Assembly (NCBI GenBank): GCA_963733055.1
Contig: CAVTBR010000003.1
Location: forward strand, 672,001-736,000
Length of the DNA stretch: 64,000 nucleotides
Direction: 5' to 3'
Source of the DNA: Candidatus Bathyarchaeota archaeon
GTDB lineage: Archaea; Thermoproteota; Bathyarchaeia; 40CM-2-53-6
Shown here: positions 33,213 to 35,698 of the stretch, in pieces
How positions within the stretch are numbered: position 1 is the first letter of the stretch
How the letters are laid out: every line of letters starts with the position of its first letter
Made by a program: the position numbers and the translations under genes
The notes under the pieces: model-generated
What the model was told of the DNA's origin: nothing
Seen by the model: the letters and a program-made list of their open reading frames with translations, nothing else
Database searches by the model: none

Positions 33213-33608
33213 TTGCCCCAATGGCATGGAGATCTTCACAAGAGAAAGAAGAGCGGTGGTAAGAAGCACATTTTCCGCGGTAAGCGCGCGTTTGAGATGG
33301 GTAGCGATCCAGCGCAAACCATTGTTGGAGAGAAGCGTTTTTCGTTACGGAGGGGCCACGGCGGGAGAATAAAACTAGCAGCTCTGGCGGTTGACACAGT
33401 CAATGTAACTGACCCGGCAACTGGAAAGAGCCAGAAGACTGAGATTCAAGGGGTCGCGAAGAATCCAGCTAACGTCGACTACCAACGACGTGGCGTAATT
33501 ACCAAAGGCGCAGTACTCGATACTCCTCTCGGTCAGGCGGTCGTTACTTCGAGACCTGGACAACACGGCGTTGTAAACGCAATCCTAATCCAGAGTACAC
33601 AGAAGTAA
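33213..33608 (+). CDS. rps8e: 30S ribosomal protein S8e
   Basis: HKRKKSGG, RRGVITKGA, TSRPGQHGVVNA. Confidence 0.96.
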   Translation: MPQWHGDLHKRKKSGGKKHIFRGKRAFEMGSDPAQTIVGEKRFSLRRGHGGRIKLAALAVDTVNVTDPATGKSQKTEIQGVAKNPANVDYQRRGVITKGAVLDTPLGQAVVTSRPGQHGVVNAILIQSTQK

Positions 33609-33638
33609 GAGTTCGCGCCGTCCTCGAAGGCGTGACGC

Positions 33639-33947
33639 TTGAAACTTCATGGAAAGTCGGTGATCTGGCCGGCGAACCTTGATTCAACTAAATCCAGAAA
33701 AGCCGGGCGAAAACTCGCAAAAGGCCCGGCTGTACAAACTCCCAAGCTGGAAGAGCTAAAGGATGCTGCAACCCAGCTCGCCATCGAACATGAAGCCGTA
33801 GGTGGGAAGTCTAGGCCGAACAGTTGGTGGGAAAAGGGAGGTTATCTCATCGTCCCAAGGGCGAACCCTCGATCCAAACTCCTCCGCTCCCTCGCAACCG
33901 AGATTCGCAAACAGAGAGTTACGAAGGAGAAAGACAAGAAGCCCTAG
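33639..33947 (+). CDS. srp19: Signal recognition particle SRP19
   Basis: VIWPANLDSTKSRKAGRK, P..WW..GG. Confidence 0.9.
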   Translation: MKLHGKSVIWPANLDSTKSRKAGRKLAKGPAVQTPKLEELKDAATQLAIEHEAVGGKSRPNSWWEKGGYLIVPRANPRSKLLRSLATEIRKQRVTKEKDKKP

Positions 33948-33951
33948 CCCT

Positions 33952-35226
33952 TCAAACGTCTCCCACTAAGATAACTTCCACTTCTTCACCCGCCTCGATA
34001 GCTCTGACTGATTCGGGAATCGTCACGATCCCATTAGCGTCGACCATGCTCGCCAACACCGACGAACGCTGAACTTTCAAGGGCTCAGCTAGAAAACCTG
34101 TCTGTCCCCTTTCAACCTTAACGCGCACAAACGTTCGTAGGTTTGGTGCACCTGAGATTCTCTCTTTAAGCACCGCTCTTATCGATGACTCGATCGGGAT
34201 AGGAGATCCAGTCATTTTAGTCAAAAGCCTAGGCACGAAAGTCTTGAAGGCGACGATTGCTGAGACTGGGAAACCGGGCAGTGAGACTATTGGCTTGCCG
34301 TTTATGACCGCTAGTCCGGTTGGCATGGCCGGTCGCATTGCGACTCCATGTACTAGCATGCCGGGTTTTCCGAGGCTGTTGATGCAACCTGGGACGAGGT
34401 CTCTCTTGCCAACCGAAGACCCAGCCGTGACTAGGACTATGTTCGTGGTGCGTAAACCCTTCTTGAGTGCTCGTGTTATTTCTCGGGGCTCATCCTTAGC
34501 TATGCCTAGGTCAACGGTTTCGGCCCCTAGTTCCCGCACCATCGCTGAAATTATGGGACGATTTATGTCGACGATCTTCGCACTTTGATTCGCGGGTTGT
34601 GAGTTTACGAGCTCGCTTCCTGTCGATAGGATTCCTACGCGGACCTTTCTAACGACGAGGACCTTGGTCAGGCCCAATGCCTTGAGTGCTCCAATATCTT
34701 CGGGTCTTAACCGTCTGCCCTTGCGGAGGATCAGCCGACCTGGTGCGAAGTCCGCTCCCTTGCGTGTCACGCCCTCTCCTGGAGTTGTAGTAGAATGGAT
34801 CCCGACCCTGTTCCCCTGTAGCCTTGTCGTGTGTTCGACCATCATGACCGAATCAGCTCCTCGCGGCAAGCGGCTCCCTGTTGCAACCGCGACCGCTTGC
34901 CCTGAGACAATCTTCAAGTGACAAGGTTGGCCAAGTTTACTTTCTCCAACGACCTCCAAAACTACCTCATTAGCCTGAGACGCGCCTTGAAGGTCGTTTG
35001 ATTGAACCGCGTAACCATCCAATGCCGACAGATCAGCTGCTGGAAGGTATCTTCGTGCAATGGCATCTTTTGCCAGGATCCTACCTACGGCATCGTGAAT
35101 CAGAACCCTTTCGGCTCTTTCTTTCATATAGCCAACGGCTTGCAGAAATGCATGATTTGCATCTTCTATGGTTGAGAGTTGCCAGAATCCTTTCGTCTCC
35201 ATAAGCTTCAATCCTACAGTTCCCAA
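33952..35226 (-). CDS. moeA: Molybdopterin molybdotransferase MoeA
   Basis: SALDGYAV, ATGSRLPRGADSV, STGSEL, GSSVGKRD, LPGFPVS. Confidence 0.93.
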   Translation of the reverse strand: MGTVGLKLMETKGFWQLSTIEDANHAFLQAVGYMKERAERVLIHDAVGRILAKDAIARRYLPAADLSALDGYAVQSNDLQGASQANEVVLEVVGESKLGQPCHLKIVSGQAVAVATGSRLPRGADSVMMVEHTTRLQGNRVGIHSTTTPGEGVTRKGADFAPGRLILRKGRRLRPEDIGALKALGLTKVLVVRKVRVGILSTGSELVNSQPANQSAKIVDINRPIISAMVRELGAETVDLGIAKDEPREITRALKKGLRTTNIVLVTAGSSVGKRDLVPGCINSLGKPGMLVHGVAMRPAMPTGLAVINGKPIVSLPGFPVSAIVAFKTFVPRLLTKMTGSPIPIESSIRAVLKERISGAPNLRTFVRVKVERGQTGFLAEPLKVQRSSVLASMVDANGIVTIPESVRAIEAGEEVEVILVGDV

Positions 35227-35269: not shown

Positions 35270-35506
35270 TTGCAATTACCCGCAAGCCTTGCGATCGGAG
35301 TCCTTTCCGTCGGGGCAGTAGTAGTCCTATTGTCGGGACTAGTTGGGTGGACTAGAAGCCGGCGCGAGAAGTCAGCTGAGCCCATCATTGAGCTTGAGAA
35401 ACTCGTGAATTGTAAATCGTGCGGATCGCTCATGCCTGAGGGTGCCCGCAAATGCGCATTTTGCGGTGCTTGGCAGAGGCAGGAACCGATTCCGGAGAAC
35501 AAATAA
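35270..35506 (+). CDS. Membrane-anchored zinc-ribbon protein
   Basis: N-terminal TM, CKSCG...CAFCG. Confidence 0.7.
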   Translation: MQLPASLAIGVLSVGAVVVLLSGLVGWTRSRREKSAEPIIELEKLVNCKSCGSLMPEGARKCAFCGAWQRQEPIPENK

Positions 35507-35550
35507 AGAGCTAACAGGAAATGCGCGAACGCCGCCGAACGGACACACGA

Positions 35551-35678
35551 GCCGCCGTATGCGAATGTTACGCAGACGATAGCTCAGTGGTGGAGCAGCG
35601 GATCCTTCGCAAGAAGGAGCTGAAGCTGTTAAACGGGCAGAAACCCGTTGGTCGCAGGTTCGAGCCCTGCCGGCGGCG
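35551..35678 (+). tRNA. tRNA-Asn(GTT) with three introns (8/9: 35559-35580; 30/31: 35602-35624; 37/38: 35632-35642)
   Basis: Spliced product folds: acceptor GCCGCCG/CGGCGGC, D stem GCTC/GAGC, anticodon stem GCGGG/CCCGT with loop CTGTTAA, T arm GCAGG-TTCGAGC-CCTGC, discriminator G; each intron junction forms a BHB-type motif. Confidence 0.9.
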
Positions 35679-35698
35679 CTATTGATTTCACTAGCAAG

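Follow-up and report, generated by a model that had tools for sequence, protein, structure and literature searches.

The tRNA-Asn(GUU) gene described here, from a Candidatus Bathyarchaeota archaeon, carries in its leader an exact second copy of the 5' strand of its own acceptor stem. Comparison with related genomes indicates that this leader copy is a real, selected element tied to the intron at tRNA position 8/9. We give a probability of about 0.65 to the reading in which the copy forms a helper helix in the precursor: it would take the 3' acceptor strand, leave nucleotides 1-8 free for the bulge-helix-bulge (BHB) motif, keep the exon tethered and delay RNase P. A decoy and tether mechanism of this kind is likely, if still unproven. 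Throughout, the window is the whole stretch of 64,000 nucleotides that was analysed.

The gene occupies 35551-35678 on the forward strand and is interrupted by three BHB introns, at positions 8/9, 30/31 and 37/38. Each cut was placed between the second and the third base of its 3-nt bulge; the rule was calibrated with the 30/31 intron of this gene, whose central 4-bp helix is perfect. The features of the locus are as follows.

35501-35508, + strand: TATA-like box AAATAAAG, overlapping the stop codon of a 78-aa ORF (35270-35506)
35530-35537, + strand: leader copy of the acceptor 5' strand, with GCCGCCG at 35531-35537
35538-35550, + strand: spacer, whose 3' part (35543-35550) pairs in the predicted fold with the 5' half of the D-arm, extending helix H1
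35551-35558, + strand: exon 1, tRNA nucleotides 1-8 (GCCGCCGU), containing the acceptor strand GCCGCCG (35551-35557); nucleotides 3-6 form H2 with 35575-35578, and the 5' bulge includes G7 and U8
35559-35580, + strand: intron 1, position 8/9, 22 nt; H3 is 35560-35563 with 35571-35574, and the H2 strand GACG lies at 35575-35578
35581-35601, + strand: exon 2, tRNA nucleotides 9-30 (D-arm and 5' strand of the anticodon stem)
35602-35624, + strand: intron 2, position 30/31, 23 nt, present in all 30 orthologs; H2 is 35596-35599 with 35619-35622 (4/4 pairs), H3 is 35603-35608 with 35613-35618
35625-35631, + strand: exon 3, tRNA nucleotides 31-37, with the anticodon GUU at 35628-35630
35632-35642, + strand: intron 3, canonical position 37/38, 11 nt; H2 is 35626-35629 with 35637-35640
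35643-35678, + strand: exon 4, tRNA nucleotides 38-73, with a regular T-arm (35654-35670), the 3' acceptor strand CGGCGGC (35671-35677) and the discriminator G35678; CCA is not encoded

When the exons 35551-58, 35581-601, 35625-31 and 35643-78 were joined, ARAGORN called tRNA-Asn(gtt) on the 72-nt product, to which CCA and A flanks had been appended in the script. Removal of the 30/31 intron yields a regular anticodon arm. From the unspliced gene ARAGORN reported no tRNA in the window, and a search against Rfam returned nothing there at the gathering score; the RF00005 score of the genomic sequence (C3:707580-707670) was 25.8 bits, below the 29-bit cut-off. Both failures can be ascribed to the three interrupting introns; the spliced form passes ARAGORN. 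A reading of CUGAAG (35620-35625) as a Phe anticodon was rejected because the 30/31 BHB, with its perfect 4-bp H2 and 6-bp H3, excises that segment; CUGUUAA remains after splicing, and ARAGORN says Asn for the spliced form. The genome-wide intron mode of ARAGORN was also discarded, as it produced implausible genes such as a 'tRNA-Trp' overlapping the tRNA-Asn locus. The 37/38 intron is missing from 8 of the 30 orthologs compared (loci L016, L018, L019, L020, L022, L023, L025 and L029). A search for loci related through the neighbouring SRP19-like protein found none.

At the 8/9 junction the two bulges, GUA at 35557-59 and AUA at 35579-81, are 3 nt each and lie on opposite strands 4 bp apart, and the same geometry is found in 30/30 Asn and 22/22 Cys precursors. 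The outer helix H1 is built from nucleotides 1-2 together with leader nucleotides -1 and -2, paired with the 5' strand of the D-stem; it contains 3-4 pairs in Asn and 2-3 in Cys, in agreement with the need for at least two contiguous pairs in a flanking helix. On sequence grounds the intron helix H3 covaries across the precursors, with all four pairs formed in 22 of 30 Asn sequences (16 distinct sequence pairs) and in 18 of 22 Cys sequences (12 distinct). The central helix H2 reads CGCC/GACG in the window, with 3/4 pairs and a C.A mismatch; among the orthologs it has 3/4 pairs in 25 and 4/4 in 5 of the 30 Asn precursors, and 3/4 in 22/22 from Cys. Because H2 mostly has one mismatch, we tentatively assign the 8/9 motif to the relaxed kind, using the BHB definition, relaxed form included, given in the available part of bioRxiv 10.64898/2026.10.13.758758. 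Supplementary Note 3 of that preprint deals with acceptor-stem and junction introns, and might bear on leader copies.

H1 and H2 together use nucleotides 1-6, and the BHB and the acceptor stem are therefore mutually exclusive. The competition of the BHB with the all-GC acceptor helix, a central point of the initial annotation, thus follows directly from the sequence. Cleavage of the 8/9 intron by EndA is predicted, and the product spliced in silico is called as tRNA-Asn(gtt). The genome contains two EndA-domain ORFs (C3:228623-228877 and C1:1338756-1338995), which fit, as expected, a broad-specificity heterotetramer, and an archaeal RNase P RNA detected at 176 bits.

The leader heptamer at 35531-35537 is an exact repeat of 35551-35557, 20 nt from start to start and separated from it by a 13-nt spacer. 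This duplicate had been noticed in the initial annotation together with an AAATAAA at 35501; its coordinates are right, and the A/T-rich element is present at 35501-35507. In addition, C35530 can pair with the discriminator G35678, extending the match between leader and 3' end to 8 bp, so that the potential of the leader to pair with 35671-35678 exceeds that of the true acceptor stem by one base pair. Comparable A/T boxes (TTAAATAA and TTAATAAA) stand at the homologous place in relatives whose upstream gene differs, and the box at 35501-35508 would function as a promoter element. The distance from the end of the TATA-like box to the copy is 22 nt in Asn and about 24 nt in Cys; elsewhere in this genome, ordinary tRNA genes have 22-36 nt between the end of the box and the mature 5' end, these distances having been taken partly by eye from the leaders, as the automatic TATA finder chose far-upstream windows for about 10 genes. 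The copy thus occupies the place of an ordinary tRNA 5' end relative to the box. Transcription is predicted to begin at the copy or slightly before it; the copy itself would then be transcribed, at or within a few nucleotides of that start.

We searched 41 related genomes at the DNA level, found the gene in 33 of them, and compared 30 loci from ten families of one order. Loss of the duplicate from orthologs that have the 8/9 intron had been named beforehand as an outcome that would count against a decoy; instead, an exact GCCGCCG copy lies 5-14 nt upstream of the tRNA in all 30 Asn loci, and 88 of the 105 genomes of the order match GCCGCCG-N3-20-GCCGCCGT, with the reservation that related genomes are not independent samples. 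That pattern also matches seven non-tRNA places (L121-L127), and a few matches are coding sequence; a reversed-pattern control for the order-wide count was uninformative because GCCGCCG reads identically backwards. In an alignment anchored on the copy, every position inside it is identical in 30/30 loci, whereas at the flanking positions the commonest base is found in 9-23 of the 30. The spacer varies between 5 and 14 nt in length, with no sequence conservation between families, and the rest of the leader differs completely from family to family. Among further public archaeal-type contigs, 11 of 12 have the exact copy. The sole variant copy, GCCGTCG (L183), retains a G.U pair with the 3' strand.

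The copy follows the intron. An uninterrupted GCCGCCGTAGCTCAGT occurs in none of the 105 genomes of the order; in the other orders of the class it was found in 46 of 296 genomes. In those other orders, 30 loci of tRNA-Asn(GUU) lacking the 8/9 intron have no leader copy within 60 nt (0/30), even though they possess the same acceptor stem and G73, and nine of them contain introns elsewhere. The copy in Asn is therefore tied to the 8/9 intron, and not to the acceptor sequence or to introns generally. A search for another tRNA family that combines the acceptor strand GCCGCCG with a copy found none.

A similar arrangement is seen in tRNA-Cys. Among the 30 tRNA genes of the same genome that were recognised by a T-arm/acceptor scan (a stricter version, used in place of a relaxed one that gave 222 mostly false candidates), all but Asn and Cys lack an exact copy in the 60 nt of leader. 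The tRNA-Cys(GCA) gene also has an 8/9 intron, and its leader copy is that of its own heptamer, GCCGGGG. Cys loci with the 8/9 intron have the copy in 23/23 cases, 4-13 nt upstream (22 exact and one 6/7), and Cys loci without it in 0/7; a copy beside an uninterrupted Cys 5' end was found in 0/105 genomes of the order. For tRNA-Leu the picture is mixed. One paralog with an 8/9 intron, Leu-B, has the leader sequence GCGGGGG (L082) or GCGGGGT (L078-80), and in the intron-less ortholog of our genome the leader is degraded to GCGGGAA. The other group, Leu-A (13 loci, including C1:211219-211430 of the same genome), has an 8/9 intron with a perfect BHB and lacks an exact copy; a GCGGCGG (6/7) lies 38 nt upstream in our genome and is not conserved. 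The folding model predicts that the Leu-A acceptor helix is open even without a decoy. The expectation that other tRNAs with acceptor-proximal introns would have leader copies thus holds for Cys and fails for Leu-A, and because of Leu-A the decoy can be regarded as common at 8/9 introns but not obligatory.

The class that we propose, comprising genes with an exact or near-exact copy of nucleotides 1-7 within about 20 nt upstream that is present only together with an 8/9 intron, contains Asn and Cys. As acceptor stems are invariant within each family, the copy and the acceptor strand appear to covary only between families, and there may have been only two or three gains. Outside tRNA genes the signature carries no meaning: 7-mer repeats followed by their reverse complement number 242 genome-wide, which is control level (240-326).

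Folding models agree with the proposed pairing. Without the leader, the minimum-energy fold of the tRNA-Asn precursor has a closed acceptor stem; with the leader, the copy pairs with the 3' strand (35671-35678). This is what had been foreseen for folding with and without the copy. The helix between copy and 3' strand is present in the minimum-energy structure of 29 of the 30 Asn precursors, beats the acceptor-closed fold in all 30 by 0.8-13.7 kcal/mol and has a probability of 0.89-1.00 in each of them, that of the acceptor helix being at most 0.08. When the copy was replaced in silico by an A/U heptamer, the acceptor helix returned (P>0.5) in 25/30. In the leader-paired fold, a pseudo-acceptor stem closes a loop that bears the T-arm and one hairpin per intron, and the two D-stem strands take part in outer helices of the BHBs. 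In 17 of 22 Cys precursors the 3' strand has the leader as its partner (P>=0.85); in the tRNA-Cys of our own genome the true acceptor helix is preferred (P 0.99). Compared with shuffled sequences, the fold of 35521-35690 is not exceptional (z -1.90).

Other results of the models fit less well. The canonical register of H2, in which nucleotides 3-6 pair with GRCG, has a probability of at most 0.04 in all 30 Asn precursors; the energy model favours pairing of C6-G7-U8 with ACG, which gives a 3x3 internal loop, against the canonical BHB register. Forcing the BHB together with the leader helix costs a median of 6.7 kcal/mol and is better than the acceptor-closed fold in only 17/30. Strand exchange after splicing, also part of the initial proposal, is not favoured in the two-dimensional energy models: when the 8/9 intron was removed in silico, the leader helix was still preferred, by a median of 6.0 kcal/mol, which leaves the exchange unexplained by such energies. 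These gaps could be filled by binding of the enzyme, by tertiary contacts in the mature fold and by the irreversible cut of RNase P.

Three short contigs from RNA libraries of relatives (151-168 nt, two studies) span the gene in unspliced form; all three introns are retained, and none of the contigs has a spliced joint. Two of these contigs, one from each study, start at the equivalent of 35540, 3 nt past the copy, and the third at 35549, which hints that the copy is possibly absent from abundant RNA; however, such contigs cannot show transcript starts, their depth is 2-5x, and the three runs contained only a small share (0.07 of sampled words), from relatives and not from this strain. Transcription of the copy is thus the weakest point of the argument. 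Standard RNA libraries lose about ten bases at 5' ends.

Altogether, we envisage the following course of events, in which transcription of the copy, helix formation in vivo, the order of the processing steps and the strand exchange are what we infer. In the unspliced precursor the copy would pair with 35671-77, joined by C35530-G35678, and produce a pseudo-acceptor stem stacked on the T-arm. With the 3' strand already paired to the copy, the true nucleotides -2 to 8 would not be captured by the all-GC acceptor helix, and the relaxed BHB could form and be cut by the splicing endonuclease after U8 and before A9. The leader helix would probably tether the 5' exon, which is very short and amounts to the leader and 8 nt, to the body of the tRNA until the ligase acts, and would probably also prevent premature trimming of the leader by RNase P. 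After ligation, the true 5' strand would displace the copy, and RNase P would take off the leader of roughly 20 nt. The co-transcriptional order may favour the decoy, because the copy would be free and the true strand engaged when the 3' strand emerges. The initial proposal that a leader decoy enables 8/9 splicing is partly supported, by the conservation of the copy, its link with the intron and the predicted pairing, and is weakened by the RNA contigs that start past the copy, the strand exchange, the Leu-A exception and the BHB register.

Other explanations of the repeat have to be weighed against this one. A chance repetition of a GC-rich heptamer might be suspected from the window, where GCCGCCG occurs nine times on both strands (7.66 +/- 2.78 expected; 31 of 100 shuffles reach nine) and is special only by its position, and from the genome-wide repeat count, which stays at control level. 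As the heptamer is not over-represented there, the window alone cannot exclude chance; the ortholog comparison does, with the copy in 30/30 orthologs and 88/105 genomes as against 0/30 intron-less Asn loci and with the like pattern in Cys, and we consider coincidence wholly implausible. It is only slightly less improbable that the mature tRNA begins at 35531, with the upstream heptamer as its genuine exon and 35538-35579 as one large 7/8 intron. The copy does lie at a normal promoter distance, and in the window TA precedes GCTC at 35580-81, so that a joint between 35537 and 35580 also gives GCCGCCG-UA-GCUC. Relatives, however, have C or A at the position of 35580, and the base that comes after their upstream copy is A, G or T, whereas the downstream copy is always followed by T; U8 can thus be supplied only by the downstream copy. 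Moreover, no H3 helix adjoins the upstream copy, and the BHB geometry suits the downstream one in 30/30.

Two further readings are unlikely, though less so, and we rate them alike. In one, the gene originally began at the copy, which stayed behind when an insertion or duplication gave rise to the 8/9 intron; it would be a relic kept at the DNA level, as part of the initiation region of the promoter, and without a role in the RNA. This would account for the distance of the copy from the TATA-like box, which is that of an ordinary tRNA 5' end, for the two RNA contigs that start 3 nt past it, and for the constant association of copy and intron, as from a single mutational origin. A neutral relic would nevertheless be expected to decay like its flanks, and yet the copy is intact in 30/30 loci; a match to the acceptor strand of each individual tRNA (GCCGCCG, GCCGGGG, GCGGGGG) is not what one would expect of a promoter element. 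The only Asn variant preserves pairing through G.U, and the Leu-B gene that is without the intron in our genome has the degraded GCGGGAA, both of which argue against a relic. In the other reading, the leader helix serves only the timing of 5' maturation, hiding the RNase P site until splicing is over, with no part in BHB formation or tethering. RNase P RNA is present in the genome, H1 uses leader nucleotides -1 to -9 so that an early RNase P cut would weaken the BHB, and in the model the BHB of Leu-A forms with no decoy present. Against it stands the prediction that, without the copy, the acceptor helix covers nucleotides 1-7 in 25/30 precursors and would block the BHB regardless of RNase P. 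In silico, this timing role and the helper helix appear inseparable. The helper helix remains our preferred reading.

Several known systems share parts of this arrangement. In the split tRNAs of Nanoarchaeum equitans, as described in the available portions of PMC4090602 and PMC4033280, complementary GC-rich trailer and leader sequences join two half-transcripts at a relaxed BHB; there, as proposed here, sequence outside the mature tRNA pairs to arrange the pieces for splicing and is later discarded, within the same endonuclease and ligase pathway. Unlike the split tRNAs, tRNA-Asn is encoded in one uninterrupted stretch behind one promoter-like box and would give one transcript, the predicted partner of its leader element is the mature 3' acceptor strand and not a trailer, the extra helix is not the one that flanks the BHB, and the copy would be removed by RNase P and not by the splicing endonuclease. 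In TACK archaea, (alpha-beta)2 broad-specificity endonucleases correlate with non-canonical or multiple BHB introns, according to the same portion of PMC4090602. The Asn introns at 8/9 and 30/31 resemble such introns in having 3-nt bulges 4 bp apart and flanking helices, and the two EndA paralogs of this genome are a further likeness to TACK archaea. Permuted tRNA genes, in which leader and trailer pair into the BHB (PMC4090602, available text), are comparable in that the Asn leader would help to form the splicing substrate. The Asn gene differs from these in that it is not permuted and that the conserved part of its leader pairs with the mature 3' end.

In attenuators and in the anti-sequestor helices of riboswitches, two partners compete for one strand, and the partner transcribed earlier decides. 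Unlike these, the Asn leader would work without a ligand or a ribosome; splicing is proposed to reset the competition, and RNase P to resolve it irreversibly. Pairing of leader and trailer in split and permuted tRNAs, as well as alternative folds for non-canonical introns, are already described in the accessible parts of this literature. In the texts that we covered on BHB introns and on split and permuted tRNAs, we found no account of an acceptor strand being copied in a leader, and no mention of a leader element competing with the acceptor stem in the available parts of the literature on TACK BHB introns. What we rate as new is thus a cis element in a pre-tRNA leader that acts within the known pathway of BHB splicing.

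A wider reading, which we hold as tentative and somewhat doubtful, combines several propositions. Acceptor-strand decoys would form a general, overlooked class of cis elements in pre-tRNAs; the primary transcript would begin with the copy, and the precursor would be refolded by it into an alternative splicing architecture, in which a pseudo-acceptor stem closes a loop with one BHB hairpin for each intron. The copy would be the original 5' end of the gene, still at its first distance from the promoter, and the 8/9 intron would have come in as part of a cassette together with a second copy of nucleotides 1-8. If this were so, the copy would both record and enable the gain of an intron beside the acceptor stem.

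Introns adjacent to the acceptor stem create a conflict: the motif that the endonuclease needs draws on bases that also belong to the strongest helix of the tRNA. The leader copy, if it works as proposed, would be a simple, RNA-only answer to this folding competition, and would mean that pre-tRNA leaders, commonly seen as free of constraint, can carry a new type of information. The copy is also a signature that gene finders could use for hidden tRNA genes missed by standard tools, and offers a way into the questions of how BHB introns are acquired and why they persist at particular positions.

The tRNA-Leu gene with an 8/9 intron in the window's own genome carries a leader of about 45 nt, and its relatives were compared with it:

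C1:211219-211430, minus strand, tRNA-Leu (8/9 intron; leader of about 45 nt; loci L062-L069 in relatives)

In this gene and in L062-L069, the leader forms two hairpins that covary between relatives, one changing from GCGG..CCGC to GCGC..GCGC, the other being CCC-UUAC-GGG. A GGCCUGG segment of the same leader is complementary to the D-loop sequence CCAGGUC. The tRNA-Leu leader may be a different leader answer from the leader copy of tRNA-Asn (GCCGCCG, 35531-35537) to the folding problem of the 8/9 intron, whose bulge-helix-bulge (BHB) competes with the acceptor stem for the same tRNA bases.

A public contig titled Acidiferrales bacterium (L173) has the archaeal tRNA-Asn gene with its three introns and the leader copy, preceded by the same ORF end as in the window, and is probably a mis-binned archaeal contig. 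The genome bin G195 holds two differing tRNA-Asn genes (L128 and L129), each with the 8/9 intron and the leader copy, reflecting either a duplication or a strain mixture.

The ORF that precedes tRNA-Asn in the window is as follows:

35270-35506, plus strand, ORF of 78 aa, hydrophobic stretch near the N-terminus, zinc-ribbon-like CxxC...CxxC motif at the C-terminus

Its stop codon lies within the TATA-like box of tRNA-Asn, and its C-terminus, ..PIPENK, is kept among same-genus relatives. Further upstream (33213-35226), translations inspected by eye resemble ribosomal protein S8e and SRP19; a minus-strand ORF there resembles a MoeA-type molybdopterin molybdenumtransferase.

The same genome also contains four isolated tRNA 3' fragments:

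C1:1423419-1423447, tRNA 3' fragment
C3 near 631634, tRNA 3' fragment
C3 near 527913, tRNA 3' fragment
C2 near 407581, tRNA 3' fragment

Each consists of a T-arm and an acceptor 3' strand without an upstream 5' half and repeats the 3' end of a nearby intact tRNA. In this they resemble what integrated elements leave behind at their attachment sites.

The three-intron tRNA-Asn gene (35551-35678) was detected neither by ARAGORN nor by Rfam at the gathering score. Of the 31 Rfam tRNA matches across the genome, just 13 passed the cut-off, and the ARAGORN calls with introns were implausible; tRNA annotation in this lineage is probably very incomplete. Base 35580, a T here whereas close relatives and all three RNA-library contigs have C, makes the splice position ambiguous (7/8, 8/9 or 9/10) in this genome only. 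Intron 2 of tRNA-Asn (35602-35624) ends in GCUGAAG, which resembles the Phe anticodon loop (CUGAAG) and is unchanged in 30/30 orthologs because it makes up the central 4-bp helix (H2) and 3' bulge of the BHB. This Phe-like sequence could mislead anticodon assignment.
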